Positions 4,071-32,912 of a stretch of DNA of 64,000 bases are shown piece after piece. The notes below the pieces were generated by a model. That model did not search any database. It was not told where the DNA came from and saw only the letters and a program-made list of their open reading frames with translations. The position numbers were made by a program, and so were the translations under genes. This DNA is from Escherichia phage PP01: sequence record NC_054930.1, one strand, 5' to 3'. Each line of letters starts with the position of its first letter. Within the stretch, counting starts at the first letter, position 1.

Positions 4071-4079
4071 AATTAATCC

Positions 4080-4610: not shown

Positions 4611-4643
4611 TGCTTTCAAAATGAAGAAAGGGGCCGAAGCCCC
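4611..4643 (-). terminator. Terminator downstream of hoc
   Basis: GGGGC-TTCG-GCCCC hairpin on minus strand followed by U-rich run. Confidence 0.55.
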
Positions 4644-4648
4644 TGAGA

Positions 4649-6067
4649 TTATGGATAGGTATAGATGATACCAGTTTCTAAAGCAGTTTTATGAATGATG
4701 TATCCATTGCGCGATTCTTGAACATCAACTTCTGGATAGTCTTTCATCATCTTCTGAAGAGTGTAACGATGCAAGTAGTATTTACTATCTGGATCTTCAG
4801 TTTTCCAATCTTTACCTTCTTCAGTCATTTTTTGGATTTCATCCATAACCCACCAACCGCACCAGATATAAGCTGAGCTACGATGTGGAAGAGGATGAAC
4901 ATAAGGTAATTCACCTTCTGGTTCCGGAGCAACTTTATCAGTCACTTGAACTTGACCTGTGGCTTTAACTGTTTTACTATCATAGTCAGTTGCTGTAACG
5001 ACAGCAGTAACTTCAATAGTTTGACTTCCAATAGATGATGTATCAACGGTGTATACATTAGTTGACCCTTCTACAGGAGAAGAATCTTTCTTCCATGAAT
5101 ACGTAATTTGTGCTTCTTCCGGAGCATCCGTAACGTTAGCAGTAAATGTAGCCGAAGCATCTTGCTGAACATTAATAGAAGGAGGAGTCAATGTAACCTG
5201 TGGATTCATTGTCTTCTTATTAACTGTCAATGATACTTCATTGGAAGTAACTTCCTTTTCATTATAATTTTCTGCAGTTACTTGGGCTACGCATTTAATT
5301 CTTTTTACTCCACTTGTAGTTGGAGTATAGTTAAATGTAGAGTTAGTTTCTCCACCAACTTGTGAATCATCTACATACCACTGATACGTGGCAGACGCTC
5401 CATCGGGTTGAGAAGCTAAGGCAGCAGTAAATTGAACCGGAGTTCCAATTACTCCAGCAGCAGGACTAGCAGGAGTTACTGCCAAGGTAGTTGTCTGCGT
5501 CTTTTTATTAACCGTCAATGATACTTCATTAGAAGTAACGCTCAATGCATCATAATCTGTCGCAGTTACTTGAGCTACACACTTGATTTTTTTAACTCCG
5601 CTTGTGGAAGGAGTGTAATTGAATGTAGCGTCAGTTGCTTCGTCTACAGGAGAACCGTCAACATACCATTGATACGTAGCAGATGCGCCCGATGGCTGTG
5701 AAGCTAAGGCAGCAGTAAATTCAACGGCTGTTCCGATTACTCCTTCTGGAGGACTATTAGGAGTTACAGCTAAGGTAGTTGTCTGTGTCTTATTTTGAAC
5801 TGTGATAGTTGTACTAATTTCAGCTGTTTCAGCTTCAGCTTCTGGAACTGTATTTGTTGCAACCACTTTAATAGTCTTTTGACCAGCAGGTCCTTTTAAT
5901 ACATAATTAAAGGTTGCTTCAGCTCCATCCTGTGGAACATTATCTACGCTCCAAGCATAGGTAATAGTTCCACCTCCAGTTTCACCACTGGGTGTAGCAG
6001 TAAACTGCTTGGTTTCATCAATAACCCCTGTTGGTGTTTTAGGAGTTATATCAACTGTAAAAGCCAT
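4649..6067 (-). CDS. hoc: Head outer capsid protein Hoc with four Ig-like domains
   Basis: 472 aa; repeated ~96-aa Ig-like units; T4 position between rnlB cluster and inh; longer than T4 Hoc as I recall it (376 aa). Confidence 0.85.
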   Translation of the reverse strand: MAFTVDITPKTPTGVIDETKQFTATPSGETGGGTITYAWSVDNVPQDGAEATFNYVLKGPAGQKTIKVVATNTVPEAEAETAEISTTITVQNKTQTTTLAVTPNSPPEGVIGTAVEFTAALASQPSGASATYQWYVDGSPVDEATDATFNYTPSTSGVKKIKCVAQVTATDYDALSVTSNEVSLTVNKKTQTTTLAVTPASPAAGVIGTPVQFTAALASQPDGASATYQWYVDDSQVGGETNSTFNYTPTTSGVKRIKCVAQVTAENYNEKEVTSNEVSLTVNKKTMNPQVTLTPPSINVQQDASATFTANVTDAPEEAQITYSWKKDSSPVEGSTNVYTVDTSSIGSQTIEVTAVVTATDYDSKTVKATGQVQVTDKVAPEPEGELPYVHPLPHRSSAYIWCGWWVMDEIQKMTEEGKDWKTEDPDSKYYLHRYTLQKMMKDYPEVDVQESRNGYIIHKTALETGIIYTYP

Positions 6068-15979: not shown

Positions 15980-16944
15980 TGTATTCTTTAGAGGAATTTA
16001 ATAATCAAGCAATAAACGCAGATTTCCAACGTAATAATATGTTTAGCTGCGTTTTTGCGACAACTCCATCAACTAAAAGCTCTTCGTTGATAAGTTCAAT
16101 TAGCAACTTTTCTTATAATAACTTGGGTCTAAATTCAGATTGGTTAGGATTGACTCAAGGCGATATTAATCAGGGAATTACCACGCTAATTACAGCTGGC
16201 ACACAAAAACTGATAAGAAAATCAGGGGTTAGTAAATATCTTATTGGTGCCATGAGTCAACGTACAGTTCAAAGTTTATTAGGCTCATTTACAGTTGGTA
16301 CATATTTAATTGACTTCTTTAACATGGCATATAACTCATCTGGATTGATGATATACTCCGTAAAAATGCCAGAGAATAGATTATCCTATGAAACTGACTG
16401 GAACTATAATTCTCCTAATATTCGTATAACTGGGAGAGAATTAGACCCTTTGGTTATTTCATTTAGGATGGATTCAGAAGCATGTAACTATCGTGCAATG
16501 CAAGACTGGGTTAACGCTGTTCAAGACCCAGTAACTGGACTGCGTGCTTTGCCACAAGATGTCGAGGCAGACATTCAAGTTAATCTTCATGCTCGTAATG
16601 GATTACCTCATACTGCTGTGATGTTCACCGGATGCATTCCAGTGTCAGTGAGCGCTCCTGAGTTATCATATGATGGAGATAATCAAATAACTACATTTGA
16701 TGTTACTTTTGCGTATAGAGTCATGCAGGCTGGAGCAGTTGATAGACAAGCTGCGCTTGAATGGCTTGAATCTGCTGCTATAAATGGCATTCAAAGCGTT
16801 CTCGGAAATAGTGGAGGTGTTACTGGACTATCTAATTCGCTTTCACGACTTAGTAGATTAGGAGGAACTGCAGGAAGCATTTCAAACATTAATACTATGA
16901 CGGGAATTGTCAACTCGCAAAGTAAAATATTAGGAGCAATATAA
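15979..16944 (+). CDS. 54: Baseplate tail-tube initiator gp54
   Basis: 321 aa; synteny. Confidence 0.85.
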   Translation: MYSLEEFNNQAINADFQRNNMFSCVFATTPSTKSSSLISSISNFSYNNLGLNSDWLGLTQGDINQGITTLITAGTQKLIRKSGVSKYLIGAMSQRTVQSLLGSFTVGTYLIDFFNMAYNSSGLMIYSVKMPENRLSYETDWNYNSPNIRITGRELDPLVISFRMDSEACNYRAMQDWVNAVQDPVTGLRALPQDVEADIQVNLHARNGLPHTAVMFTGCIPVSVSAPELSYDGDNQITTFDVTFAYRVMQAGAVDRQAALEWLESAAINGIQSVLGNSGGVTGLSNSLSRLSRLGGTAGSISNINTMTGIVNSQSKILGAI

Positions 16945-16948
16945 CAAT

Positions 16949-16978
16949 GGGGACCTTTCGGTCCCCGTGTTTTTATTT
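16949..16978 (+). terminator. Terminator after gene 54
   Basis: GGGGACC-TTTC-GGTCCCC hairpin followed by GTGTTTTTATTT. Confidence 0.6.
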
Positions 16979-17263
16979 ACGGAATGAAATAAAAGCAGCA
17001 ACTGAAGCAACTAAACTGTCTTCAATATAAACTTCAATTTTTACCGGAGCTTCTGACTCAAATTTACCTGTTACTACACCTTGGAAAATGCTTTCAGTCT
17101 GCTCTGGCTTTGAAAAATTTTCAGAAGGAAAAATTCCGAACTTTTTATCTGTTCCAAAAATTTTGATAAATTCATCATAAACTGCTTCATTAAAAGCGTT
17201 ATCAGCAGGAATAACGCCTTCAACTACGAGTTCTTGACCTAAAAAGCGCAAAGAAGATTTCAT
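16973..17263 (-). CDS. Hypothetical protein (alt.-3-like position)
   Basis: 96-aa ORF with ATG and GAGGA SD, directly downstream of an early promoter. Confidence 0.55.
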   Translation of the reverse strand: MKSSLRFLGQELVVEGVIPADNAFNEAVYDEFIKIFGTDKKFGIFPSENFSKPEQTESIFQGVVTGKFESEAPVKIEVYIEDSLVASVAAFISFRK

Positions 17264-17294
17264 TTTGTGTTCCTCATGTTATGTCAGTAAGATT

Positions 17295-17323
17295 ATTATA
17301 ACACAACACGAGGGACTTGTAAA
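17295..17323 (-). promoter_or_regulatory. T4-type early promoter
   Basis: Minus strand GTTTACA-N17-TATAAT; part of a 55-bp cassette repeated at 32857-32911. Confidence 0.6.
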
Positions 17324-19381
17324 CTACATTTTGAACTTTTTAGACATTCCGTTGATGTTAACCAAAGAAGCCAAGATTTGAGAAACTTCATTTTCCTCTT
17401 CTTTTGATTCTTCTACAAGGAATTGATTAAATCCAGCCATTGGACGAACTTCACCAGTTTCCATTAGATGGTCGCCATCATATACCGATTCTTTTAATTG
17501 TTCAGAAGGAGGAACGATTGTGCCTTCGATTAAATACTTATTATAAGCAGTTTCTTTCATCATGTACGTACTCACTTTATTAATCTTCAGCAAAATTCCA
17601 CGCGGTAAAATAACTTCAGCTTCTGACGGAAATCCTGATAAATGCCCTGGAACGATAACTTTGATTCGCTCAGCTCCTTTAATTACCATACCCACGCTAG
17701 TTTCAGCATCTTCATTCGCATAAGCAGAATGACTGCCCATATGCATTAAATCTTCAGCATCAACGGAACCTTCTCCTTCACCAGAAAATACTGCACCGGA
17801 ATCATCTAGAGCCATATAGTTTTTACCATACTCACCGAAGATATTTGGTTTAAGCGATGTGGATACGAAGTTCTTGAAATAGAACATTTTATTTTCAATA
17901 TTATGACGTAAAGTTTTAAAGGTAACTTCTTGTCCACGGTAAAGTGTAGTTCCTGGAGGAAGAACTGATCCTTTGGCAAAGGCAGAATCCATTGTCTCGA
18001 TGTGTTTAATAGCTCGTTCCATGTATTCTTCACGTGTAGAATCCGGTTTACCTAAAAGGAACGAGTTCATTTCAACATATGAATCTGCACAATAATCTTC
18101 AATTACATCAGACTCAGCCTGAGTTAATCCTTTTGGAGTTACTTCAGTACTTGCATATTCATACGCTTGAGAAGCAGACTCATTAATCAATTTATAAACG
18201 CCATTCATGACAAATTGAATAATAGCTACCTTTTCATCTGGCGTGGCTTTAGAACCTTTAACTAAATCATTGACGATTTTCTTAATAACATCAAAGCTAT
18301 TAGAAATATTAATGTCAGCAAGATCGCTTAAAATTTTATCAGTTTTATAATCAAAAAATTCTTTATTCTTTAAATATTCTTGAGAACCTTGATATGTTAT
18401 ATCGCTCTGTAACTTGATAGATGGATCACGTAAACGTGCATGAGCCAATGCAATATGATTTCGGAAGCTTTCTAGTTCATAATCACTAGATTTAAAACGA
18501 GAAGCACTTCTCATACCACCGATAGCTCCTTTGCTGAAGTTTGAACCAACCTGAATAACGCCGGAGTTCATTGGTCCTTCTGCTTTATATACCGGAACTT
18601 TAGATTCAAACTCTTGGTATTTCTTAGCAGCGAAGCTATCACCCTGAAGTGAAGCATCGACGGTAGAGTATTGAGCTTGTGCTGCTAATCGACGACTAAT
18701 TTTAGTTTTCTGAATAACAGCTTGATCCGTGCGCTTATCATTTTCTAAAGCAATAGAAGCGGCAACAGCGACAGCTTTAGGAACAGCATTACCTGTTTTA
18801 ACATCTACATAAACATCACCAACCTTTGATTCAACTTTTGTGAATAACTCAGTTGAAATAGGAGGTACACCTGGAATGTCTTCTAAATTGGCATTTTTAC
18901 GGTAAACCATAATATATGCATATTTCTTATCATAGTCCCAGATTTCCTTTAAAAGAACATATCGACCTGCTCCTTTAGTACGTACTAAACGGTCGGCAAT
19001 AACTTGCATTTGACGAGCTGCGCCATTTGTTTTACTCTTTAGTACGCGGAATAAGCATGCGTCAATTTTGTACTGTTTCATTGTCTGAAGAGCAGTATCA
19101 AAAACCGCATTAATGACACCAATTGGATTTCCACCCAAGTTTTTAAGTTTAACTAATGATAGTTTCTCATTAACACCTATCATTACGATATGCATCATTT
19201 TATCGCCTGGCTTAACGTTTTTATTCGTATCACCGCCAGAGGTGTATGTACAAAATCTAAATCCAGGAAGCACGCTTTCTTCGCCTGCTTGAATAGCAAA
19301 AATTTGAGGTATTTTATGCTTAGGATTTAAGTTAACAACCGGCGCCGAAGCGCCGTCAAATAATTCTGTAATAAGTTCCAT
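17324..19381 (-). CDS. Alt-family mono-ADP-ribosyltransferase paralog (distal copy)
   Basis: 685 aa; Alt-like N-terminus MELITELFD...; R-S-E motifs LYRGQ, FVSTSL, EAEVILPRG. Confidence 0.8.
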   Translation of the reverse strand: MELITELFDGASAPVVNLNPKHKIPQIFAIQAGEESVLPGFRFCTYTSGGDTNKNVKPGDKMMHIVMIGVNEKLSLVKLKNLGGNPIGVINAVFDTALQTMKQYKIDACLFRVLKSKTNGAARQMQVIADRLVRTKGAGRYVLLKEIWDYDKKYAYIMVYRKNANLEDIPGVPPISTELFTKVESKVGDVYVDVKTGNAVPKAVAVAASIALENDKRTDQAVIQKTKISRRLAAQAQYSTVDASLQGDSFAAKKYQEFESKVPVYKAEGPMNSGVIQVGSNFSKGAIGGMRSASRFKSSDYELESFRNHIALAHARLRDPSIKLQSDITYQGSQEYLKNKEFFDYKTDKILSDLADINISNSFDVIKKIVNDLVKGSKATPDEKVAIIQFVMNGVYKLINESASQAYEYASTEVTPKGLTQAESDVIEDYCADSYVEMNSFLLGKPDSTREEYMERAIKHIETMDSAFAKGSVLPPGTTLYRGQEVTFKTLRHNIENKMFYFKNFVSTSLKPNIFGEYGKNYMALDDSGAVFSGEGEGSVDAEDLMHMGSHSAYANEDAETSVGMVIKGAERIKVIVPGHLSGFPSEAEVILPRGILLKINKVSTYMMKETAYNKYLIEGTIVPPSEQLKESVYDGDHLMETGEVRPMAGFNQFLVEESKEEENEVSQILASLVNINGMSKKFKM

Positions 19382-19384
19382 GAT

Positions 19385-21481
19385 TTATCCTTGAACGAAC
19401 TTGTAAGGCATGTTTGTAATATCTATGCAAGACGCAATAATTCCAAGAGATGATTCTACTTTCTGTTTAATATTTGATGAAACAAATGATGCAAAGTCAA
19501 CTCTGTCTTCTATTTCAATATCATCTGTCATTGCAACTACTTCGCCGGTTTCCATTAGACGGTCACCGTCATAAATTACTGATTCGGTGAGTTCTTCCGT
19601 AGTCATAACTTCAGCTTGAATGAGTTTTGTATTATTAGATGTTGTTCCGTCATTATTAGAAGCATCAGTTATTTTATTAACTTTGACCATCAATCCGCGT
19701 GGTAGAATAACTTCAGCTTCTGTTGCTATTCCGAGACTTCCTGGATATACAACATTAACTTTATGAGCTCCATCAATTGCCCATCCTATTTGAACTTTAA
19801 CGTATTCAGGATTTTCTTTATACGCTCTTATTTCGTTTGGATTGATAGTTATTCCTTCTTCATTTTTATCAACTGTTAATTCATTACGAGCTTCTGGTTC
19901 TAAAAGACCTATACCAGCATGTGTAATTCCAAAACGTCCAAAAATGATAGGAGTTAAAGAAGTAGATACAAAATTTCTGAAATAGAACACTTTATTTTTA
20001 ACTAGTGCTTCGTATATAGGAGCAGTCATGCTTTGAGCACGATAAACTGTAATGCCTTCTGGTATACGGTCACCATTTTCAAAAGCTGAATCTAAATTAT
20101 TTATCGCAGATTCAATTTCTTTTTCACTCATTACATCATATCGTTCTGGATTGTAGCGGCCTAAAAGAAGATTATTGATGTCAGTATATCCTGATCCACA
20201 ATACTCTCTAATGCCGCGCTTTTGCGATGGAGTATATTTAGAACCATCACGTGCAATGGTAATATCAATCATTGGACCTGCACCAATTCCAGAAAAGCTA
20301 TAAATCATTCGTTTGAGGAATTTAGTTTTTGCTGCGTTCCAGGAATTTTTAGTTATTTCTTCCCAGACTTCATCTGGCTGCCCTTTACGAGTTTTATTAT
20401 GTTTATCAAGCCAATTATCTTTATATTCTTCAAAGAATTGATTAACAGCTGCTGCGTATTTCTCTAAACATTTTATTGAAGTAGTTGGTTCATTTTTAAT
20501 CGCATTAAGAATTACATCTTTAATTTTTTCAGAAACTTCATTAACCTCACTTTTTGAAAAGAATTTATAATCATAGTGAAGTTCATCTGCAGTTCCTTCA
20601 GCAATAATTTTTGCTGCCTTAGTTTTAGAAGCTAATGAATTAATTCCAAGTTTCATTTCTTCTGCTTCAGGAATTAAAGGAGCTGTAGCAGGTTTATTGA
20701 AATTAGCTGCGGTAGATTCATACTTCTGGAATAATTCACTTTCAAATCTAGAAGATTCTAATGATTGACTTTGCGCAATTGCTCTACGGGAAATTTTAAC
20801 TTTAACGATTACAGCTTGGTCAGAACGTTTATCATTTTCTTGTGCAATAGAAGCAGCAATTGCCTCATTTTTAGTTACTTGAGCTCCAGTATCTTTATTA
20901 ATATAAACATCGCCGACTTTCGATTCAACTTTAGTAAAGAGCTCGGTACTAATTTCCGGAACTCCTGGAATGTCTTCTAGTGATACATTTTTGCGATGTA
21001 TAAGAATATATGCATACTTTTTATCATAATCCCAGAGTTCCTTAAGAAGGACGTATCTGCCACCTGAACGACTACGGATAAGTCTATCAGCAATAACTTG
21101 AATTTGTCGAGCTTGACCAGCAGTTTTAGACTTAAGAATACGAAGCATGCAGGCATCAATTTTATACTGACGCATTGTTTGCATTGCAATAGTAAAAACT
21201 GAATTGATATAATTAATTGGGCTTGGACCGAGACCTTTTAATTTAGCAATTGAACCTTTAGCAGTTAATGTAAAAGGAACAATATGCATCATTTTATCGC
21301 CCATTTTTAAATCGCGATTAGTATCACCTCCAGATGTATAGGTACATAAACGAAAGCCTGGTTGTTCAATTGCGTCATCAACGTGAACTGAAAAAATTTG
21401 TGGTATTTTCTTCTTTGGATTTAAGTTTGTAATCGGAAGAGTAGTATCTTCGTCAAATAATTCTGTAATAAGTTCCATCAT
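19385..21481 (-). CDS. alt: Alt mono-ADP-ribosyltransferase (copy adjacent to gene 30)
   Basis: 698 aa; N-terminus MMELITELFD; motifs VYRAQ, FVSTSL, EAEVILPRG; late promoter upstream. Confidence 0.8.
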   Translation of the reverse strand: MMELITELFDEDTTLPITNLNPKKKIPQIFSVHVDDAIEQPGFRLCTYTSGGDTNRDLKMGDKMMHIVPFTLTAKGSIAKLKGLGPSPINYINSVFTIAMQTMRQYKIDACMLRILKSKTAGQARQIQVIADRLIRSRSGGRYVLLKELWDYDKKYAYILIHRKNVSLEDIPGVPEISTELFTKVESKVGDVYINKDTGAQVTKNEAIAASIAQENDKRSDQAVIVKVKISRRAIAQSQSLESSRFESELFQKYESTAANFNKPATAPLIPEAEEMKLGINSLASKTKAAKIIAEGTADELHYDYKFFSKSEVNEVSEKIKDVILNAIKNEPTTSIKCLEKYAAAVNQFFEEYKDNWLDKHNKTRKGQPDEVWEEITKNSWNAAKTKFLKRMIYSFSGIGAGPMIDITIARDGSKYTPSQKRGIREYCGSGYTDINNLLLGRYNPERYDVMSEKEIESAINNLDSAFENGDRIPEGITVYRAQSMTAPIYEALVKNKVFYFRNFVSTSLTPIIFGRFGITHAGIGLLEPEARNELTVDKNEEGITINPNEIRAYKENPEYVKVQIGWAIDGAHKVNVVYPGSLGIATEAEVILPRGLMVKVNKITDASNNDGTTSNNTKLIQAEVMTTEELTESVIYDGDRLMETGEVVAMTDDIEIEDRVDFASFVSSNIKQKVESSLGIIASCIDITNMPYKFVQG

Positions 21482-21502
21482 ATCCTCTCTAGTGTTTATT
21501 CT

Positions 21503-21510
21503 ATTTATAA
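21503..21510 (-). promoter_or_regulatory. Late promoter (TATAAATA on minus strand) for alt
   Basis: Plus strand TATTTATA; about 22 nt upstream of the alt ATG. Confidence 0.55.
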
Positions 21511-21532
21511 AATTAAAGGCCCGAAGGCCTTT
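21511..21532 (-). terminator. Terminator hairpin between gene 30 cluster and alt
   Basis: AAAGGCC-TTCG-GGCCTTT hairpin followed by A/U-rich run on minus strand. Confidence 0.5.
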
Positions 21533-21719
21533 AATAATCTAGTGGTAAGAGAGTACGGTATATTTCAAACTTTGGCCCTTTTTCATAGGCATCAAATGTT
21601 TCTGTAAATTTATTATAAGCATACGCATCTACAAATTCGAGAATGACTTGCGATACCGAAGTAGAAACATCTCCACCTTCTTTTTGAGCTATAACAATTG
21701 TTTCTAAGTAAGCTTTCAT
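21531..21719 (-). CDS. Hypothetical protein
   Basis: 62-aa ORF; ATGA overlap with the gene 30 stop. Confidence 0.5.
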   Translation of the reverse strand: MKAYLETIVIAQKEGGDVSTSVSQVILEFVDAYAYNKFTETFDAYEKGPKFEIYRTLLPLDY

Positions 21720-23176
21720 AGACCAGTTACCTCATGAAAATCACCAAATACATCCTCGAATGTATTAGCTTTAGTTTTATCTTCACGTAAACGAATCGCA
21801 ATCGGAAGAAATAATTTAACGTAATCAGTGCGGCCATCAGATTTTAACCAACCATTGCATTCGCACTCTAGAATTTTTCCAATATAATAATTTTGGTTTT
21901 CCATAATGCGAGTACGGTCAAGTTCATGTGATTTTACACCGGCTTTATCTTTTAAGCCTGAACCTGCATTTACTTTAATTTTTCCACACTCTGATTCAAG
22001 AATAAATCCACCCGCTTTAGTAGGGTCTTTACGGTGAGGATAAATTCCTACAATTTTTAAATCAACATCAATTACTTCTTTAAATTTATAGAGATTTTTT
22101 GAACGAGCATTTTCCCACAATCCATCGGTATTTTTGAGAATAATACCTTCAAGACCTTGGTCAATATATTTTTTATAAATTACCTTAGCTTCATCTAGGT
22201 TATTTACTACCTGGTTTTCAATTAAAATTACTTTATCATATCCTGATGCCATTTGTTCTAGTTTAGAAAAACGTACATCATATTTTAAACGAAACGCCGG
22301 AAGACCGTATATTTCTACCAACGGAACATAATCCCAGACCTGAAACTTCATGCATTTGGCTTCTTTTTCTGAAATAGTTCCCTTTAAAGATTTATTGGCG
22401 ATTCCATTAGAAGCAGTACGAGATTCAGCTACTTCGGCAAACTCTTTAGCTTTACTGATTTCAGGAGCATCAAAAAGAAAATCTAGGCCTTCTGGTTCCT
22501 TTTCAACTTGCTCATGGTATACCAATTCGCCATCAATTAACACACCTTCTGGATGAATCTGGCGGGCTTCAGCAGTCATTTTGATTAACTCTTCCTTAAG
22601 AAGATCTAATCCTAAATATTCATTACCAGCTCGCGATAAAAGACGAACATCATCTAATTCATCGCCTCGGACTTCAGCAAAACACCGAGCTCCATCAGCT
22701 TTTAACTGTGCAAAAGCTGGAAACTTGATATTCTTACTAATGCCTTTTTCATCATAAGAACTTGCAAGCATTTGAGGTTGTTCAGGAATTAAACCTGGCC
22801 AAACTTTGTTTGCAATAGATACTGAAGCACCGCATTCAAGGTCTCGCATCATAACTCGACGCAAAACTTCAACATCATCCTTTTTACCATCGGTGATATA
22901 TCCAGTTAATTCCTCAATTGCTGCATTGCCAGTTAATTTCCGAGTAGCTAACGTGAATTCAATGAAGTCAAGCATATCGGTAATAGTCAACATTCCAAAA
23001 CTCTGGGTAGCAATACCAGGTTTAGGCCATTTCTTGATATAATATTGTAACCCACGAGAATAAGTCAGACGATATACTCGTTTAAGCAATTCATTATCTT
23101 TATTCTTTTCAAGAATTGCTTGCTTCTGTTTAGTTGATCCAATAGATGCTATTTCATTCAGAATTTTAAGAATCAT
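21716..23176 (-). CDS. 30: ATP-dependent DNA ligase gp30
   Basis: 486 aa; adenylation motif LKADGAR (KxDG); synteny. Confidence 0.9.
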   Translation of the reverse strand: MILKILNEIASIGSTKQKQAILEKNKDNELLKRVYRLTYSRGLQYYIKKWPKPGIATQSFGMLTITDMLDFIEFTLATRKLTGNAAIEELTGYITDGKKDDVEVLRRVMMRDLECGASVSIANKVWPGLIPEQPQMLASSYDEKGISKNIKFPAFAQLKADGARCFAEVRGDELDDVRLLSRAGNEYLGLDLLKEELIKMTAEARQIHPEGVLIDGELVYHEQVEKEPEGLDFLFDAPEISKAKEFAEVAESRTASNGIANKSLKGTISEKEAKCMKFQVWDYVPLVEIYGLPAFRLKYDVRFSKLEQMASGYDKVILIENQVVNNLDEAKVIYKKYIDQGLEGIILKNTDGLWENARSKNLYKFKEVIDVDLKIVGIYPHRKDPTKAGGFILESECGKIKVNAGSGLKDKAGVKSHELDRTRIMENQNYYIGKILECECNGWLKSDGRTDYVKLFLPIAIRLREDKTKANTFEDVFGDFHEVTGL

Positions 23177-23442
23177 TGCTCATCCTTCAAGGTTTGGTTT
23201 ACAGCTCTATTATAAATCAATTCATCATTAAGCTCAGGCAAAGACTTATGATATGTAGTTCTAACTTTATTTCCTTGCATCCAGTGCTTGACGTAAATGA
23301 AACCTTGCTCTACACATTTTTTAAAAATTCGTTCGTCTTTTTGAGCTCGGAATTCTGGATTGCATCTAAAAAATTGATTTACGTGACCGTAATCACGTGT
23401 AGTATTACCTTCATTTTCATAAATAGTGTGAACGACAAACAT
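23173..23442 (-). CDS. Hypothetical protein (30.1-like)
   Basis: 89-aa ORF overlapping the gene 30 start codon. Confidence 0.5.
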   Translation of the reverse strand: MFVVHTIYENEGNTTRDYGHVNQFFRCNPEFRAQKDERIFKKCVEQGFIYVKHWMQGNKVRTTYHKSLPELNDELIYNRAVNQTLKDEQ

Positions 23443-24281
23443 TAGAATGCTCCTTGAAAAATATTATCACCACTAGTAGGTCTATTATACAAATACTCTA
23501 TGCCACCAGGTTTAATATAGTTCCATGTCTGAAACGGATGTGTCTGATATGGATGATATGGATGATTATAAGGATTAAATCCAGGCGTTCTCCAGGTAGT
23601 GTTCCAAGGAAAAGAATCGTTTTTAACCATCTTCTCAATTACATCTTTTATAGCTTTTTCACTATCAAAACTTTCTTTATTTTCCTTTGGTGAAAAAAGC
23701 TTATTTTCTACATCATTCCATGTATAAACTCGCTGCGCAGTTTTTGGAATATTGTCACGCTCTCCTCGAGCCATCCAATAAACTGGAACATTTAATATTT
23801 CACTCGCATGATCGCAGTGATGAGCGAGATCGTCAATATAACAAATTACGTTATATTTCTCTTTTGCCTTTTTGAACAGCTCTTCTTTTGAAGAATCATG
23901 ACCACACATCATTACTTCTGAGAAGGCACCGGGAAAAAGAGCATTCAAATTAAATTGACGATTCAACAGAGCGTCAATAGAATCACCCAATGCTGTAACA
24001 GCTACAAAATTATAATCTTCCTTTAATTTGTTAATTACACACAGGGCATCTTTATACGGAGACAAGTAACGAATAAAATCTGAACGATTGTATTTTTCAA
24101 TTAACTTGACGCCAAGTTCTTCGTCACAATTAAAGAGTTTACCTGGAGAAATAAATTTCTCATCTTGGATCATTTTTAAAATATGTTCTAATGGAAGATT
24201 ATATTTCTGAGCAAAATAAGGAAGGCCTGATTGCCAGCTTAAACATACTCCATCAATATCAGTCAAAATAGTTGGCTTCAT
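23442..24281 (-). CDS. HAD-superfamily phosphatase, 5'(3')-deoxyribonucleotidase-like (30.2-like)
   Basis: N-terminal ILTDIDGV motif (DxDGV); aromatic/proline-rich C-terminal tail. Confidence 0.55.
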   Translation of the reverse strand: MKPTILTDIDGVCLSWQSGLPYFAQKYNLPLEHILKMIQDEKFISPGKLFNCDEELGVKLIEKYNRSDFIRYLSPYKDALCVINKLKEDYNFVAVTALGDSIDALLNRQFNLNALFPGAFSEVMMCGHDSSKEELFKKAKEKYNVICYIDDLAHHCDHASEILNVPVYWMARGERDNIPKTAQRVYTWNDVENKLFSPKENKESFDSEKAIKDVIEKMVKNDSFPWNTTWRTPGFNPYNHPYHPYQTHPFQTWNYIKPGGIEYLYNRPTSGDNIFQGAF

Positions 24282-24736
24282 AGAGAGTCTCTTAATAGAT
24301 TTAACACATCAATAAATTCAGCTTCGGTTAGTATTGTATCATCTTTTGTTAGACCACTAGCCATGCTGTGCTTCAAAACTTTTCCTTTCGAGGCTTGTAA
24401 TGCATCACGAAAGCCCCTGTTTTGGATCGCTGCTTCAAAATATGCATTTGTGTATAATTCTTTCCACGCTGGAGAGTATCTTGAAAACGGAACTCCAAGC
24501 CAGAACAACGTGCCACGGTCCTGAGCTCTAGCATAAGCTCGTCCAGCTTTTTGCGCGTCCAACCCAGACATCCCAAATATACGACGTTGTTGTTCAACAT
24601 TTTTCACCTTACATCCCTGGAGAAATCCTTCGAGACCTCCAAATTGGATACCATTCATAACGAAAGGCCATTGGGCGAAATTGCTTAATGCACATGATGG
24701 CCATCTAAAATTGCTTCTAATCTCTAACTCAGACAT
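24278..24736 (-). CDS. NADAR/YbiA-like domain protein (30.3-like)
   Basis: Motif LSNFAQWPF...GIQFGGLEGFLQ matches the YbiA/NADAR signature FSNFxxWP...EHYFQ. Confidence 0.6.
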   Translation of the reverse strand: MSELEIRSNFRWPSCALSNFAQWPFVMNGIQFGGLEGFLQGCKVKNVEQQRRIFGMSGLDAQKAGRAYARAQDRGTLFWLGVPFSRYSPAWKELYTNAYFEAAIQNRGFRDALQASKGKVLKHSMASGLTKDDTILTEAEFIDVLNLLRDSL

Positions 24737-24944
24737 CTTTAATACTTATAATTTCAATATCAGCCCAATGACCGTAACCTGGTAGACGGTCCTCAATGGA
24801 TAATCCGCCATCATATTTAAGCATTTTAATTGTCATAATATATGGCTCTAAATGGTCTTCTGTGAGAGGAGAAACGTCAGTCACACGATAAGTAACTTCA
24901 ACCATTTCCGTACCTAATAATTTCTGAATTAATTTCTTAAACAT
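24729..24944 (-). CDS. Hypothetical protein
   Basis: 71-aa ORF, ATG start, operon-packed. Confidence 0.45.
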   Translation of the reverse strand: MFKKLIQKLLGTEMVEVTYRVTDVSPLTEDHLEPYIMTIKMLKYDGGLSIEDRLPGYGHWADIEIISIKDV

Positions 24945-24948
24945 TTTA

Positions 24949-25236
24949 TTAGAACCTCATCTGAAAACCATGCGATTTAACATTACCGCCGCCAATATCA
25001 GAAATGTTAATTTCACGCGCAATTGAAGGGTCAATATCAATTTCACGATTGAGTTTAGTAATAGCTAAAGTATCACGGCCATTTACAGTACGGAACTCTA
25101 AAGGGCAGACTACATTAACGTAGTTTTTAATCGATTCACTGGTAGGTTGCAAATGAGCAGGAAGGTCTTTAGGCGCCTTAGAGAAAACTACTTCACAGAA
25201 ATTTTTGCGGGTATCAAAATAAGTAGTCATAAACAT
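24949..25236 (-). CDS. Hypothetical protein
   Basis: 95-aa ORF, ATG start with GAGGAAAAT SD. Confidence 0.5.
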   Translation of the reverse strand: MFMTTYFDTRKNFCEVVFSKAPKDLPAHLQPTSESIKNYVNVVCPLEFRTVNGRDTLAITKLNREIDIDPSIAREINISDIGGGNVKSHGFQMRF

Positions 25237-25277
25237 AGTATTTTCCTCAGTAAGGGGCCGAAGCCCCTCATTTTATT

Positions 25278-25643
25278 TTAAATGTCAAATTCGTTAAGAA
25301 CTACATCAAAGATTGCTTCAAGATGCTCAGGTTTAGCTCTGTTACTCAGAATATGACGAATCCAAGTTTTAACCAGAAGCTTGCGATTAACGCCATTCCA
25401 ACAAGGATGAGTACCTAAATCACGTTGACGGAAATCATCATCTAATGCGATTTTAAAGGAAGAACCTTCTTTCGTGATTGAAACCGTGATGCCATTTTCA
25501 AATCGCATATAAACGTAGTTAGGAGTCATATACTGTTCAATTTCGCATACTGATCCATTTTGATGTTTCCAAAGGCAAATAGTATCAATAGAACCTGCAA
25601 TACCGTTAGAAACATATTTACGTTCAAAGTTGATGTAGTTCAT
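25278..25643 (-). CDS. Hypothetical protein
   Basis: 121 aa from ATG 25643 (SD GGAGAATAAA); the track start at 25655 is a TTG. Confidence 0.5.
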   Translation of the reverse strand: MNYINFERKYVSNGIAGSIDTICLWKHQNGSVCEIEQYMTPNYVYMRFENGITVSITKEGSSFKIALDDDFRQRDLGTHPCWNGVNRKLLVKTWIRHILSNRAKPEHLEAIFDVVLNEFDI

Positions 25644-25679
25644 TTTATTCTCCAAGATGTTTAATTGCGGTACAGGTAT

Positions 25680-25707
25680 ATAATATCATATCCTGTACCA
25701 AAGTAAA
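25680..25707 (-). promoter_or_regulatory. Early promoter
   Basis: Minus strand GTTTACT-N16-TATTAT; -10 lies inside inverted repeat GGTACAGG...CCTGTACC. Confidence 0.45.
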
Positions 25708-25710
25708 CAA

Positions 25711-26043
25711 TTATTTTACTAATTTCCAATGCTTCATGTCAAGTTTGCCAACTTTTTTCATCTTCTCAATTAAGCGTTCGGCACGTTGGCGAGCTGTAAC
25801 ATAATACCATTCACCTAATTCATTTTGTTCAATTTTTCCAACGATTACTGTATTCAATTCATAAATCCAACCAGTAAAGAAATTATGAACTTGAATTGTA
25901 AAGGTGAAATCTGTTCCCATACCTTCTGTTGTTTCTACTTCAACAATATCACCTTCAACTGCCATTAAGAACCACATAGTTTCATCATATTTACCATTGA
26001 AGCATTTAGTTTTAACCGCAGCGTTCAGATTAATCGTTTTCAT
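25711..26043 (-). CDS. Hypothetical protein
   Basis: 110-aa ORF with ATG and GGAGAATAAA SD. Confidence 0.5.
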   Translation of the reverse strand: MKTINLNAAVKTKCFNGKYDETMWFLMAVEGDIVEVETTEGMGTDFTFTIQVHNFFTGWIYELNTVIVGKIEQNELGEWYYVTARQRAERLIEKMKKVGKLDMKHWKLVK

Positions 26044-26070
26044 TTTATTCTCCTTTGTTTGTGTAAGATA

Positions 26071-26099
26071 ATACTATCACAAAGGAACCATACTGTAAA
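26071..26099 (-). promoter_or_regulatory. Early promoter
   Basis: Minus strand GTTTACA-N17-TAGTAT upstream of the ORF starting at 26043. Confidence 0.5.
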
Positions 26100-26127
26100 C
26101 AACTTTGTGCAATCTTTGGAAAATAAA

Positions 26128-26147
26128 AAAGGACTCCCGAAGGAGTC
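26128..26147 (-). terminator. Intrinsic terminator
   Basis: GGACTCC-TTCG-GGAGTCC hairpin followed by TTTTTTATTTT on minus strand. Confidence 0.65.
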
Positions 26148-26153
26148 CTCAAC

Positions 26154-26372
26154 TTATGCTTTCTGCTTACCAAAACGAGAAGCATCATCTCGAAGAACCG
26201 CACGTGCTCGACGCATGATCTTCTCAACAGTTTGATTGATACGAGAGTTCGACGCACGCTTGTAACCAGCGCGTTTAGAATCACCAACTTTCTTTTCAAC
26301 TGCTTTCTTTGCTTTAGCTTGTTTTGCCATTGTAAATTCTCTTTTAAATGAAAATGCAGGACTTATTGGCAT
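26154..26372 (-). CDS. Small basic protein (30.9-like position)
   Basis: Lys/Arg-rich ORF; alternative ATG at 26330 would give 58 aa (MAKQAKAKK...). Confidence 0.45.
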   Translation of the reverse strand: MPISPAFSFKREFTMAKQAKAKKAVEKKVGDSKRAGYKRASNSRINQTVEKIMRRARAVLRDDASRFGKQKA

Positions 26373-26524
26373 TGCCTGCGCAAGCCCTCAAGGGGAACAT
26401 AGGTTTTGTATATTTACCGACAGGATAACCATAAACCTCGTCAACATTCAAGAGGTACACCGTAAAACAAAGTTCGACGGCTCCTCGATTTTAGCTCACA
26501 CTAAGGCAGTGAATCTCCAATAAA

Positions 26525-26773
26525 TTACTTCAGTGTTACCACAAAGTGACGAACTGCTTTTCGTGCAGCAGAAGCCAGAGGCTTAGCATACTTAAGTTCA
26601 TCTTTTTCCTGGAGCTCAGCAGCTAATGCGGTTTGAGCAGGATTCAGATGTTTGAAATAACGCAGGATTTCAAGAGCTTCGGCTTCAACATCAATAGATG
26701 CGCCATAGTTTTCGTGACCATTATTCCATGCGTTTCGTTGCAGTTCAAGAGCGTGTTGTAATTGTTTAATCAT
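26525..26773 (-). CDS. rIII: rIII lysis-inhibition accessory protein
   Basis: 82 aa as in T4 rIII; synteny between gene 31 and the gene 30 cluster. Confidence 0.75.
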   Translation of the reverse strand: MIKQLQHALELQRNAWNNGHENYGASIDVEAEALEILRYFKHLNPAQTALAAELQEKDELKYAKPLASAARKAVRHFVVTLK

Positions 26774-26920
26774 TTAAAAATTCTCGTTAGAGATTAAAAC
26801 TCGGTAGTCACGTTCTTCTGAATTTCATCTTCTTTCGACAGATCTCTCAGTTGTAGACTACCACGTAGAATTGTTCGGTTAACTTATTATTCCGACACCC
26901 AATTCATATTATTATTTATA

Positions 26921-27256
26921 TCACTTATAAAGACACGGAATAGCTTTATAGTGACAAGTAACGAATTTTTGTTTAATTTCTTTTGGCTGCTTAAGACCCA
27001 GAGCTACAAAAGGATGCGGAACGTTTCGAATTTGACCAACTGGAAGAGAAGTCAAATCACCAACTTCGCAGAAACCTTCAGGAACATCAGGACCAACAGA
27101 GTGAACTACACACAGTTCAGGAACTTCACCTTGAACACGTTTACCGATAATGAGTCCTGATTCTGTAACTTCTTCATCACCAGCTTGCGCAGGTTCAGAA
27201 ACTAAAATAACATATTCACCGACAGCACGAATTGGTAGCTGTTGTACTTCAGACAT
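26921..27256 (-). CDS. 31: Co-chaperonin gp31 (GroES-like)
   Basis: 111 aa as in T4 gp31; middle promoter upstream. Confidence 0.85.
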
Positions 27257-27286
27257 CGTTTTTCCTTTTTGTTAACAGATGAATTA

Positions 27287-27314
27287 ATAATAACAAATAA
27301 TTCTTAAAGCATTT
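27287..27314 (-). promoter_or_regulatory. Middle promoter with MotA box for gene 31
   Basis: Minus strand AAATGCTTTA (MotA box) then 12 nt then TATTAT. Confidence 0.5.
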
Positions 27315-27621
27315 ATTTACCAATAAATTGAAGCAAATGCTCAACTTTCATGCCATTAACGGAAATCAATTTGTCAATAGAAAAACCTCGCCATGCACCA
27401 AGCTCAACATCAAATACTGGAACCATATCAGTAGATTCTTTCCGAGTTGATTCAGTCAATTTACCGGTTTGCATGGTTGGCATAAAGTCAGCATCACGAG
27501 TACCTTTCATAGTACGAATAGTACCGTCAGACTTTTCAAAAACCACGTTTGAAATACCCATAGACAATTTAGTTTTCAAAATTTCACGAATTGCTACTTT
27601 TTGTTCAGTCGTCAGTTTCAT
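27313..27621 (-). CDS. Hypothetical protein (31.1-like)
   Basis: 102-aa ORF with ATG start. Confidence 0.5.
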   Translation of the reverse strand: MKLTTEQKVAIREILKTKLSMGISNVVFEKSDGTIRTMKGTRDADFMPTMQTGKLTESTRKESTDMVPVFDVELGAWRGFSIDKLISVNGMKVEHLLQFIGK

Positions 27622-27858
27622 TTATTTACCTATCACAGTTTTAATATGGGTTGTTCCACGTTCTTTAAGAGTGGAAAGCAATTTTTGGCATTTTTCTAAA
27701 TCAGATTTCCAACTATACGGTCTATCAATACAAACCCAGTCTGACTTATAATACTGTTTCCATTTAGAGAAAAAATACTTCTTATACTCTACAGCAAATG
27801 AAATGTTCTCGTTGGAATAAGAACTAATTGCTGTGAGTTGTACCAAACGAAATTTCAT
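27622..27858 (-). CDS. Hypothetical protein (31.2-like)
   Basis: 78-aa ORF with ATG start. Confidence 0.5.
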   Translation of the reverse strand: MKFRLVQLTAISSYSNENISFAVEYKKYFFSKWKQYYKSDWVCIDRPYSWKSDLEKCQKLLSTLKERGTTHIKTVIGK

Positions 27859-28439
27859 TATTCACCACAGAATTCGTTGATATTTTCCCAGTTTAACTTA
27901 TTCAAGTTTTTCTTAGGAACATTAAACACTTCAATACCTGCATTTCGCAGAATATCATCCCAGCCAGGTTTATTTTTATCGTATGTTTCGCAATAAACCA
28001 ACTTTTTAATTCCAGATTGAGCTATCGCTTTTGCACAATCTGGGCAAGGAGAAAGTGTTACATACATAGTAGCACCTTCAATTGAAGAACCATTTCGTGC
28101 AGCAAACAAAATTGCATTTAGTTCAGCATGAATTTCATTTTTAGGCGACCATTCAGAATGAGCGCTGCGGTGTTCTTTCGCCAAGACAAAACGATCAGTT
28201 GAACCAAACGATACACATTCGGGCTTATGACCTTGAATGATAGTATGTTTAGGTTTATTCAACAACCAACCTTGCTCGGCAGCATAATCACAGCAATTCA
28301 CACCGCCTGCAGGCGAACCATTATATCCGGTAGAAATAATACGTCCATTCTTTTCAATTACTGCTCCTACCTTCCAGGAGCAACATTTTGATTCTTGTGA
28401 TACTAAATATGCAATTTGAAGTACTGTACTCGCTTTCAT
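27858..28439 (-). CDS. cd: dCMP deaminase
   Basis: 193 aa; zinc-binding motifs HAELNAI and SPCPDCAKAI. Confidence 0.9.
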   Translation of the reverse strand: MKASTVLQIAYLVSQESKCCSWKVGAVIEKNGRIISTGYNGSPAGGVNCCDYAAEQGWLLNKPKHTIIQGHKPECVSFGSTDRFVLAKEHRSAHSEWSPKNEIHAELNAILFAARNGSSIEGATMYVTLSPCPDCAKAIAQSGIKKLVYCETYDKNKPGWDDILRNAGIEVFNVPKKNLNKLNWENINEFCGE

Positions 28440-28774
28440 TTCATAATCACCAGATAAGCAGATTTAGCAGTTTCAACACGATAAATTTCGTGACGAAGTT
28501 TAGTTATACTTTTAATAACAGAACTAATTATATTCTGCCCATCTTTAAAGCGGTTTTTCTTATCAATAAAAATTGCACCAGCCATCTTTTTGTGAAGCTC
28601 AACTGGATACTTCGTCACAATAATAGCATCATACACAGAAGGATGAATACTGTTCACCAGAGTATCGTTCATTAAAGTTATTCTAATGAACTGAGCTGTT
28701 TCAGAATCAAGCGCTCTATGATCGCCAGTATCATTTTCAAGACAATTATCAATTATATCAGTTAAATTCATCAT
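28436..28774 (-). CDS. Hypothetical protein (cd.1-like)
   Basis: 112-aa ORF; ATGA overlap with the cd start. Confidence 0.5.
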   Translation of the reverse strand: MMNLTDIIDNCLENDTGDHRALDSETAQFIRITLMNDTLVNSIHPSVYDAIIVTKYPVELHKKMAGAIFIDKKNRFKDGQNIISSVIKSITKLRHEIYRVETAKSAYLVIMK

Positions 28775-29007
28775 AGTACGCCATACACCCTTTGTGCTTC
28801 AACTAATCCATCAAAATCCAATTTGAGATGTGTTATTTGGTCACCATCACCTGGATTCACAATTACTAATACTGAACGAGGAGTTTCGGTAATAACACGA
28901 ACCGACGTTTCAGGAAATCGTTCAGAAACCTTATTTACCAATTCCTGAGCAAATAGTTTAACTTTTTCTTGGAATTCTTTAACAGTAATTGGATTTTCAC
29001 TTAGCAT
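28771..29007 (-). CDS. Hypothetical protein
   Basis: 78-aa ORF; overlapping start/stop. Confidence 0.5.
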   Translation of the reverse strand: MLSENPITVKEFQEKVKLFAQELVNKVSERFPETSVRVITETPRSVLVIVNPGDGDQITHLKLDFDGLVEAQRVYGVL

Positions 29008-29528
29008 GTTGATCCAAGCTCCTTACTTTCAACGTTTTTAACTAATTTGACAGAAACTAATTCAGCATCTTGAGTAATCATTACCGGACCTTCTTCATAC
29101 TCTTCAAGATATTCTAGAGCTTTCTTTTTAGCTTCTTCCTTCGTATCAGTTTGAGCATAGATATAGAACATACAACCAGTAATACCTACTACTTTCCACT
29201 TAATTTCTTTATCAGCTTTAATTTCAAATTTACTGGCAGAATCATCTTTTTGAACTTCTTCGAAAAAAGAATATTCTAACATATAAGCAATTGAAAATAA
29301 CGGACTAACTTTATAGGATTCGCCCATTACATCAACAGCTTTATACCAACAGTCATCAATTTCGCGTTTAATGCTAATAACATTTTTCGCAGGATCTATT
29401 TTTACTTTAAATGAATTTTCCCCAATAAACTGGGCAATTCGTTTATTAGCCCCACAAGTTTCATTAAAAATATCTTTATATCCAGCTTTAAAGCGATAAA
29501 CCTTATCTTCTTCAAACCATTCGCTCAT
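29001..29528 (-). CDS. Hypothetical protein
   Basis: 175-aa ORF preceded by an early promoter and GAGGAAA SD. Confidence 0.55.
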   Translation of the reverse strand: MSEWFEEDKVYRFKAGYKDIFNETCGANKRIAQFIGENSFKVKIDPAKNVISIKREIDDCWYKAVDVMGESYKVSPLFSIAYMLEYSFFEEVQKDDSASKFEIKADKEIKWKVVGITGCMFYIYAQTDTKEEAKKKALEYLEEYEEGPVMITQDAELVSVKLVKNVESKELGSTC

Positions 29529-29558
29529 TTCAATTTCCTCATTTGTTTTGGTAGAGCT

Positions 29559-29587
29559 ATAATATCACAACTCTACCGTAAAGTAAA
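29559..29587 (-). promoter_or_regulatory. Early promoter
   Basis: Minus strand GTTTACT-N17-TATTAT; -10 lies inside inverted repeat GGTAGAG...CTCTACC. Confidence 0.5.
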
Positions 29588-29590
29588 CTG

Positions 29591-29866
29591 TTAAATTGCT
29601 TTGAATTCTGATGTCTGCGATTCAAAGCGAATATCGCCCTTGATAACTAACTCAGCATCAAGACCGAATACGACAATGATATGCGCGGAACCTGGATACA
29701 GCGTAATGGCGATAGAATCCACCTGGTCTGGAAGCAAAGTGTTCAATACATGAGTCACTTGAGCGTGGATTCGAAGTTCAGCTGCATTATCAAGCTTTTC
29801 AAACATGTTATTAACGATAATTTGACTAAACACTACTTCTACGATTTTAGAATAAGTCGGAAACAT
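29591..29866 (-). CDS. Hypothetical protein
   Basis: 91-aa ORF, ATG start. Confidence 0.45.
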   Translation of the reverse strand: MFPTYSKIVEVVFSQIIVNNMFEKLDNAAELRIHAQVTHVLNTLLPDQVDSIAITLYPGSAHIIVVFGLDAELVIKGDIRFESQTSEFKAI

Positions 29867-29868
29867 AT

Positions 29869-30069
29869 TTACCTCACATAATTTTCTTCAAGCCAATCAA
29901 TAACATCCAACGCATTATCAAAAGTTGAACCATCTACTTTGTCTTCTGTTTCATAATCAAGAACATCTAAACCTACTCTTCCATCAACAATAGGCCATAA
30001 ACAAAATAGATATTTCTTTTCTTTTTCAATTTTATCACAAAGTCGATAAATCTTTTCTATGTTATTCAT
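29869..30069 (-). CDS. Hypothetical acidic protein
   Basis: 66-aa ORF, ATG start. Confidence 0.45.
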   Translation of the reverse strand: MNNIEKIYRLCDKIEKEKKYLFCLWPIVDGRVGLDVLDYETEDKVDGSTFDNALDVIDWLEENYVR

Positions 30070-30258
30070 AAGTTTTCCATGGTAAAGGCAGTTTAGTTTT
30101 CTTTACTGTTAGTTCAACATCAGGATTCTTTTCTCTTAATTTAAGACATTCCTCCCAAGCCCTAATTTCACTAGTGAATACGCAAAATTGCCCATTACTA
30201 GTACCAACTAAATCGCTATTTACAATAACAATAGCCCAAGTTTCATGATGCCAAGCCA

Positions 30259-30259
<1 letters not shown>
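30062..30259 (-). CDS. Hypothetical protein
   Basis: 65-aa ORF; stop overlaps the pseT start region. Confidence 0.45.
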
Positions 30260-31477
<1,218 letters not shown>

Positions 31478-31481
<4 letters not shown>

Positions 31482-32908: not shown

Positions 32909-32912
32909 CAGC

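Follow-up and report, generated by a model that had tools for sequence, protein, structure and literature searches.

Background

Two kinds of described leader elements come closest to the locus analysed here. In the promoter-early stem-loop (PeSL) cassettes of phages RB49 and phi1, a stop codon is followed by a -35 box, a stem-loop placed between the -35 and -10 boxes or over the -10 box, a Shine-Dalgarno sequence (SD) and an ATG, and the stem-loops behaved as terminators when tested in reporters (Arbiol et al. 2010, PMC2839356); in PST and T4 the PeSL stem-loop was placed just upstream of an early promoter of the form TTTACW-N17-TAYWAT (Comeau et al. 2014, PMC4122927). The second kind comprises leader hairpins that sequester the ribosome-binding site (RBS) and are accompanied by an internal promoter, as described for the T4 genes e (lysozyme), soc, 49 and I-TevI, and also for I-TevII/III, Aeh1 mobE and segB (PMC3014915). 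The T4 early (Pe) promoters themselves form a class with a GTTTAC-type -35 box, a 17-nucleotide (nt) spacer, TGn, a TATAAT-like -10 box and an A-rich upstream stretch (Hinton 2010, PMC2988021). Here we describe a stretch of 64,000 nt from Escherichia phage PP01 (record NC_054930.1; the whole stretch is referred to as the window), in which a cassette of 54 base pairs (bp) occurs twice, upstream of alc and of an alt.-3 homologue, carries an early promoter in both places, and is predicted to form an RNA hairpin that buries the SD of the gene downstream.

The reading that we consider moderately likely is that the cassette combines an early promoter with an SD-burying hairpin, with translation only from RNA started at its own promoter, that the copy at alc is the older one, and that gene conversion has acted since. 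What computation and sequence comparison establish is the promoter, the hairpin together with its conservation, and the signal of conversion; from them we infer the translational gating by the hairpin and the exact start sites. Alc stops transcription on cytosine DNA, and RegB, whose gene enters the comparison below, is a nuclease that cuts mRNA.

A duplicated early-promoter cassette upstream of alt.-3 and alc

The pattern search identified two exact copies of the 54-bp string, with 0 mismatches between them, at a distance of 15.5 kb and in a setting where all genes around both copies lie on the minus strand. No third copy was found elsewhere in the window at up to 3 mismatches, and the string was matched in 0 of 100 dinucleotide-preserving shuffles. 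The copies and the genes around them are as follows.

17271-17324, minus strand: cassette copy A, 54 bp from the -35 box to the SD, 5' of the alt.-3-like open reading frame (ORF); exact repeat
32856-32909, minus strand: cassette copy B, 54 bp from the -35 box to the SD, 5' of alc; exact repeat
16973-17263, minus strand: alt.-3 homologue, 96 amino acids (aa), downstream of copy A (PHROG 1739, E-value 1e-44; T4 alt.-3 annotation)
32345-32851, minus strand: alc, inhibitor of host transcription, downstream of copy B (PHROG 1253, E-value 6e-82; annotations of relatives)
17324-19381, minus strand: second alt paralog, 685 aa, upstream of copy A (ORF and annotations of relatives)
32913-34037, minus strand: rnlA (gene 63), upstream of copy B (ORF and T4 annotation)

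The cassette fills the intergenic gap at both loci: the 5' edge of copy A is the G of the stop codon TAG of the alt paralog (17324) and its 3' edge lies 7 nt short of the alt.-3 ATG, while copy B begins 3 nt past the rnlA stop and ends 4 nt short of the alc ATG (candidates at 32851 and 32848). The rnlA start at 34037 was placed by the internal methionine of MQELF... and by the 1125-nt rnlA annotation of T4; the ORF listing has an upstream GTG at 34073. Since the adjoining bases are unlike between copies A and B on both sides, the length of the repeat is exactly 54 bp.

The promoter elements are located as follows.

17318-17323, minus strand: -35 hexamer TTTACA of copy A, preceded by a G at 17324
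17295-17300, minus strand: -10 hexamer TATAAT of copy A, with the extended -10 TG at 17302-17303
32903-32908, minus strand: -35 hexamer TTTACA of copy B (sequence scan)
32880-32885, minus strand: -10 hexamer TATAAT of copy B, with TG at 32887-32888

Both copies carry G-TTTACA-N17-TATAAT, in which a TG stands two bases ahead of the -10 box. The sequence matches the sigma-70 consensus at 11 of 12 positions and shows every element of a T4-type early promoter, i.e. (G)TTTAC(A), a spacer of 17 +/- 1 nt, TGn and a TAtAaT -10 box; it also fits the form TTTACW-N17-TAYWAT published for T4/PST (PMC4122927). An identical leader, ending in GAGGA, follows the -10 box. Variants of the -10 box occur in T4 (TATAGT) and upstream of alc in T6 (TACAGT), and the late-promoter motif TATAAATA is absent from both cassettes. 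Time-resolved omics of T4 assigned alt.-3 and alc to early RNA and early protein, alt to the late genes, alt.-1/alt.-2 to the middle ones, and rnlA to early RNA but late protein (PMC9697503), a shift of kinetics at the cassettes that an early promoter located there would predict. In the literature searched, no 5'-end (transcription-start) map was found for these T4 sites, nor any measurement of RNA structure or translation. From the geometry of the -10 boxes, the +1 position is predicted about 7 nt downstream, near 17288 in copy A and 32873 in copy B, i.e. inside the 3' arm of the hairpin described below.

The initial annotation had reported the pair as an identical 55-bp repeat at 17271-17325 and 32857-32911. 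The exact identity is correct and so is the number of two copies, and only the length and the spans needed revision: the end at 17325 lies one base too far, and the second span is displaced by 1-2 bases. Its gene context (between an alt paralog and an alt.-3-like ORF, and upstream of alc) agrees with the ORFs, the PHROG matches and the T4 annotation, and its description of the repeat as an early-promoter cassette that has leader and SD in common is borne out by the consensus match of both copies and by the early expression of the T4 genes downstream.

The leader hairpin and the predicted burial of the Shine-Dalgarno sequence

Folding of the minus-strand RNA revealed an 18-bp stem with one bulge in both copies (-21.4 kcal/mol in copy A, -22.8 kcal/mol in copy B; z-scores of about -4 to -6), which in copy B is extended by AAGU paired with ACUU. 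For the minimum-free-energy and centroid folds the z-scores are -4.4 (copy A) and -4.2 (copy B). The arms are located as follows.

17296-17313, minus strand: hairpin 5' arm of copy A, CCUCGUGUUGUGUUAUAA, comprising the promoter spacer and most of the -10 box
17272-17290, minus strand: hairpin 3' arm of copy A, UUACUGACAUAACAUGAGG, with the SD GAGG at 17272-17275
32881-32898, minus strand: hairpin 5' arm of copy B (from the fold)
32857-32875, minus strand: hairpin 3' arm of copy B, with the SD GAGG at 32857-32860

Opening the region from the SD to the AUG is predicted to cost 10.7-12.4 kcal/mol in RNA arriving from upstream versus 1.7-3.3 kcal/mol in RNA started at the cassette's own +1, and the predicted probability that the SD is unpaired in the read-through RNA is 0.00-0.01. 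When the 78 candidate translation starts of the window are ordered by structure, alc comes first (18.7 kcal/mol) and alt.-3 fourth (12.9 kcal/mol), the median being 4.4 kcal/mol.

The inverted repeat could in principle act in the DNA, as a protein operator, a cruciform or a hotspot of recombination, as it overlaps the promoter and its copies do recombine (by conversion, see below). However, three G-T pairs become A-C mismatches on the other strand, which would make a poor cruciform, arms of 18 bp exceed typical operators by far, and T4 recombination needs no special site. In Tequatrovirus the fold of the sense strand is 4-9 kcal/mol more stable than that of the antisense strand, owing to the G-U pairs, and this asymmetry favours a role at the RNA level over a DNA cruciform. 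We therefore give a DNA-level function hardly any credence.

An intrinsic terminator, i.e. a G+C-rich stem followed directly by a U-run, was also considered and rejected, since the terminator scan found neither a U-run after the stem nor a terminator call at either copy. The Rfam covariance models gave no match at either cassette in the region 16500-34000 at E-values up to 1; the sole hit there was a sub-threshold match to a small RNA, away from the cassettes.

The same design in other genera and at regB

Upstream of alc, the GTTTACA box combined with a spacer complementary to the alc SD was identified also in Gelderlandvirus, Karamvirus, Moonvirus, Jiaodavirus and Dhakavirus, where the sequences differ (examples of the arm pairs: TCTCCATTTGGTT/AACCAAATGGAGA, TCTCCGTTT/AAACGGAGA, TCCTCGTCAG/CTGATGAGGA, TCTCCTCAT/ATGAGGAGA). 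The predicted opening cost in these genera is 10-18 kcal/mol for the long RNA versus 0.6-3.7 kcal/mol for the short one, and in Karamvirus, Moonvirus and Gelderlandvirus the alc SD within the stem is GGAG. The alt.-3 genes of Karamvirus, Moonvirus, Gaprivervirus and RB69 have another early promoter, whose spacer contains a small hairpin and which is followed by a similar leader (ACATGAGGA). Because alc exhibits the design in five more genera, and alt.-3 has another promoter in four, the alc cassette is likely to be the older one, copied to alt.-3 in the Tequatrovirus lineage. As a separate observation, the small hairpin, which lies wholly within the spacer, is common to the alt.-3 promoters of Karamvirus, Moonvirus, Gaprivervirus and RB69 and to the alc promoter of NHEP10, and has a conserved loop of the GGAA type (e.g. 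CACAC-GGAA-GTGTG).

The same combination of promoter and anti-SD was found 5' of regB in the Tequatrovirus RB32, a Karamvirus, a Jiaodavirus-like phage and PEi20-type contigs: the spacer of the regB early promoter is complementary to the gene's own GGAG-type SD. The arms of RB32 read TTCCTCTTGACTG/CAGTTAAGAGGAG (-22.4 kcal/mol, at about 82-140 of its upstream locus). When the arms of the alc and regB cassettes were aligned over 13 pairs, 98% of the cells were paired versus 37-56% in slid controls, one pair occurring as UA/AU/GC (three Watson-Crick types) and another as AU/GC; as this alignment mixes the two loci, and draws on three lineages only, the covariation counts support the cassette design and not alc orthology. 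The PEi20-type cassettes, which closely resemble the alc cassettes of Karamvirus and Moonvirus, were tried as alc orthologues and rejected, as tblastn and PHROGs place them 5' of regB. For the alc cassettes of Karamvirus and Jiaodavirus, BLAST located two sites in each record. In Karamvirus (the only one of the two for which alt.-3 was covered) the second site does not lie 5' of alt.-3, and it was found neither at regB, nor within about 5-12 kb around alc in the loci scanned, nor in three further pattern scans.

These comparisons suggest, tentatively and with somewhat less than even confidence on our part, a general and so far undescribed design of "self-insulating" early promoters in Tevenvirinae. 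The spacer would encode an anti-SD, so that alc, regB, alt.-3 and a small membrane peptide would be translated only from their own immediate-early RNA and remain silent on read-through, middle or late RNA; the cassettes would be portable units, copied between genes and homogenised by conversion, and the design would explain in part the extra spacer conservation in T4 early promoters.

Further sites in the window were noted on the minus strand. At 61637-61694, the spacer of a further early promoter (TTTACA-N17-TACTAT) pairs in a stem of 15 bp (-22.7 kcal/mol) with the SD GGAGG of an ORF for a hydrophobic peptide of 37 aa (MKKIIKAIWNV...); its design is like that of the alc/alt.-3 cassette and its sequence is unrelated. 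At 40950-40978, 29559-29587 and 25680-25707, stems formed by the spacer and the +1 region of early-promoter-like sites enclose the -10 box and leave the SD free, as in PeSL-like elements. The start of denA (34500-34540), the second most structured translation start in the window, carries between the SD AAGGAG and the AUG a GC-rich hairpin, GUGGGCC-GCAA-GGCCCAU, and after it a U-run, i.e. a terminator-like hairpin within the initiation region, which recalls the way in which SD and AUG are split in T4 genes 25 and 38.

The comparison among genera bears on two other explanations of the stem. According to the first, the cassette is an insulator of the PeSL type, whose stem-loop attenuates or terminates polymerase arriving from upstream or guards the 3' end of the upstream message, the pairing with the SD being a by-product of the short gap. 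The PeSLs of RB49 and phi1 indeed have the same layout and were terminators in reporter tests (PMC2839356), those of PST and T4 use the promoter form TTTACW-N17-TAYWAT (PMC4122927), and stems that flank the -10 box without contact to the SD are present at the window sites 40950, 29559 and 25680 and at alc of TG1. On the other hand, the stem at the two window copies is rich in A-U and G-U pairs and has neither a U-run nor a terminator call. Moreover, the 3' arm includes the alc SD in six genera, and the 5' arm opens right after the -35 box with an exact complement of the SD (TCTCC/GGAGA, TCCTC/GAGGA), which an attenuator would not need. We think that this explanation is unlikely.

The second explanation is that the hairpin is an element of RNA processing or protection, either a target of a ribonuclease or a shield against one, e.g. 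for cleavage between cistrons by ribonuclease III (RNase III) or for guarding a GGAG SD from RegB. It draws on the GGAG that lies within the stem at alc in three genera and on the presence of the design at regB itself; it is opposed by the length of the stem, as 18 bp with a bulge is short for RNase III, and by the cassette of Tequatrovirus, which has GAGGA and no GGAG. RegB is therefore irrelevant to the two window copies, and RegB targeting of the Tequatrovirus cassette was rejected. As an account of the cassette, processing or protection seems very improbable to us.

Distribution, variation and probable gene conversion in Tequatrovirus

The window belongs to Tequatrovirus, and the regions of both copies are 97-98% identical to many genomes of this genus (the T4/T6/RB51 group). 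A blastn search with the 54-mer gave 995 places in 498 phage records, i.e. two per record, including T4 (where the copies sit 5' of alt.-3 and of alc), T2, T6, RB32 and RB51. Judged by these records, the cassette pair, present in essentially every Tequatrovirus record searched, is a genus-wide feature and the duplication is old.

Variation was compared in 17 genomes with both copies, out of about 500, since pattern scans of IMG/VR and of metagenomes for more copies gave only 8 loci each. All 8 of the 8 Tequatrovirus haplotypes that were folded keep -19 to -24 kcal/mol. The substitutions in the arms mostly preserve pairing (C to U opposite G, G to A opposite U); in one pair of GBLB0003, C-G is fully replaced by U-A. 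The stability bears on the simplest alternative, namely that the promoter alone matters, that the hairpin is accidental, and that the identity of the copies reflects copying and gene conversion. Conversion alone can hold two short repeats identical, and no RNA structure is needed for this; however, such a plain promoter duplication would account neither for a hairpin whose stability is kept in all haplotypes and in genera with unrelated sequences, nor for the position of alc and alt.-3 among the most structured of the 78 starts in the window, and we regard it as quite improbable.

The copy at alt.-3 occurs in two forms, one with a locus-specific 5' arm TTCCTTATG (T2, T6, teqhal, GBLB0003 and one IMG/VR phage) and one with the alc-like arm TCCCTCGTG (the window, T4, G28 and others), and CJY920 shows the reverse mix. 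Five different haplotypes each occur at the two sites of a single genome (window/G28, RB51, TH09, one IMG/VR contig and, nearly, ACG-C40); T2 and T6 have 5 differences between their own two copies. The mean number of differences between copies is 2.06 within a genome versus 2.69 between genomes (permutation p about 0.006, which is only approximate because the 17 genomes are related). We read this as recurrent gene conversion in short tracts between the two sites, in both directions, which would also be the cause of the perfect identity in the window.

These results modify what the initial annotation had concluded about the history of the pair. Its view that the similarity arose by copying and not by convergence agrees with the comparison among genera, where alt.-3 has another promoter and alc has the hairpin design in five. 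Its argument, that identity through the non-consensus spacer and leader implies copying, was correct as to the copying, but these segments are not neutral: they are the arms of a conserved hairpin, and so their conservation is in part due to selection. The duplication is not recent, as had been supposed, because about 498 Tequatrovirus records carry the pair; the recent part is the homogenisation. The suggestion that the direct repeats are substrates for recombination applies to the short conversion tracts, whereas the 15.5-kb interval was seen neither deleted nor duplicated (no search aimed at deletion or mini-circle products could be made), and the third cassette copy of G28 is unrelated to it.

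In G28, a perfect tandem duplication of 351 bp (3985-4686 of its locus) comprises the 3' end of rnlA, the cassette and the first ~190 nt of alc, and thereby creates the third cassette copy and a truncated alc. Recombination mediated by the cassette was considered for this genome, the only one found with three copies, and rejected, since the junctions of the duplication lie inside rnlA and alc. In the annotation of phage P479, alc is listed twice. The window also carries two full-length alt paralogs in tandem (17324-21481, minus strand), as do T2, T6 and G28, and only remnants of the second paralog (alt.-1/alt.-2) are present in T4 and ACG-C40; this variable alt segment stops exactly at cassette copy A.

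Proposed mechanism and its evaluation

Two further features of the alt region define the RNAs that may reach copy A.

21502-21509, minus strand: late-promoter motif TATAAATA, 21 nt 5' of the first alt ATG
16947-16968, unstranded: bidirectional terminator-like hairpin past alt.-3, the likely 3' end of RNAs crossing copy A

With a late-promoter motif before the first alt gene and a terminator-like site after alt.-3, late alt transcripts should cross copy A. In the mechanism that we propose, the host sigma-70 RNA polymerase would read the strong early promoter of the cassette straight after infection. RNA entering from upstream, i.e. late alt transcripts over copy A and early or middle nrd-denA-rnlA transcripts over copy B, would fold the 18-bp hairpin, which would bury the SD and leave alt.-3 or alc untranslated. 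RNA started at the cassette's own +1 would begin within the 3' arm, lack the 5' arm and be translated. As an outcome, Alc and Alt.-3 would be made only while the early promoters fire, which is the logic of T4 e, soc, 49 and I-TevI with the timing reversed. As for the history, the alc cassette would have been copied before alt.-3 in the ancestor of Tequatrovirus, with short-tract conversion both ways thereafter.

Several observations weigh against this mechanism or limit the support for it. In the short alt.-3 RNA the SD is predicted to pair weakly with the start of the coding sequence (unpaired probability 0.02-0.03), a pairing that takes only 2.5-3.3 kcal/mol to open. The hairpins of NHEP10 (Mosigvirus-like, RB69-like) and of the Tegunavirus TG1 leave the alc SD free, and the Gaprivervirus TH44 has no promoter at alc; thus, the design is not universal. 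Outside Tequatrovirus the asymmetry between the sense and antisense folds is missing or reversed. Three variants in the arms break a pair (G to T at alc of T6, G to T at alc of GBLB0003, and T to C in the -10 box), and transitions in a stem rich in G-U pairs are easily pair-compatible by chance. The mixed loci and few lineages of the 13-pair alignment count here too, as does the dependence of the conversion test on 17 genomes that are not independent.

If the mechanism is true, a T4-type phage would limit takeover proteins, which are potentially harmful, to the minutes right after infection, with their genes still embedded in long later transcripts, and a single 54-bp module would suffice for this. 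Hairpin control of the lysozyme type would then be extended from late to early genes, and the conserved bases inside the spacers of early promoters would have a functional reason. The cassette pair would also be a clean case, provided by nature, of a regulatory module evolving in concert within a virus genome and, in practical terms, a compact and portable part combining a promoter with a translational insulator. Should the mechanism fail, there would remain a well-documented PeSL-like pair of early promoters kept alike by conversion, ordinary for this group of phages.

Comparison with known systems

The cassette sequence was not found in the literature searched, which did not include the T4 genome review (PMC150520), where an older description of the hairpin or names of the promoters may exist. 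Regarded as promoters, the two copies do not differ from the T4 Pe class, with the addition that the extra conserved bases of the spacer would be explained by pairing with the SD. For regB, only a typical early promoter has been described.

The similarity to PeSL cassettes is extensive: the cassette spans the gap from stop codon to ATG, contains an early promoter of the sigma-70 type and a stem-loop, and has the SD and ATG at its 3' end, and copies at different loci recombine and accompany differences in gene content, as seen here in the sharing of haplotypes and in the variable alt segment beside copy A. A hairpin overlapping the -10 box fits the description for RB49, and not the position "just upstream" given for PST. 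In contrast to the PeSL stem-loop, which is treated as a terminator or attenuator, the 3' arm of the present hairpin is the SD itself, and whereas PeSLs excise mini-circles or shuffle ORFs, the copies described here trade short tracts over 15.5 kb around essential genes. The two PeSL papers (PMC2839356, PMC4122927) make no mention of translation, SD pairing or gene conversion.

With the hairpins of T4 e, soc, 49 and I-TevI the cassette shares a promoter in or beside the 5' arm and, by prediction, the burial of the SD and/or AUG in RNA started upstream and the translation of RNA from the own promoter, which lacks the 5' arm. The described cases differ in that their promoter is late (or middle) and the RNA silenced is early read-through, whereas here the promoter is an early sigma-70 one and the predicted effect is reversed; alc, alt.-3 and regB are not listed among the RBS-sequestering hairpins in PMC3014915. 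As its internal promoter is early and not late or middle, the cassette is a variant of the e/soc/49/I-TevI family and not a strict member. The PeSL cassettes and these T4 hairpins are thus the closest kinds, and beside them we rate the cassette as modestly new.

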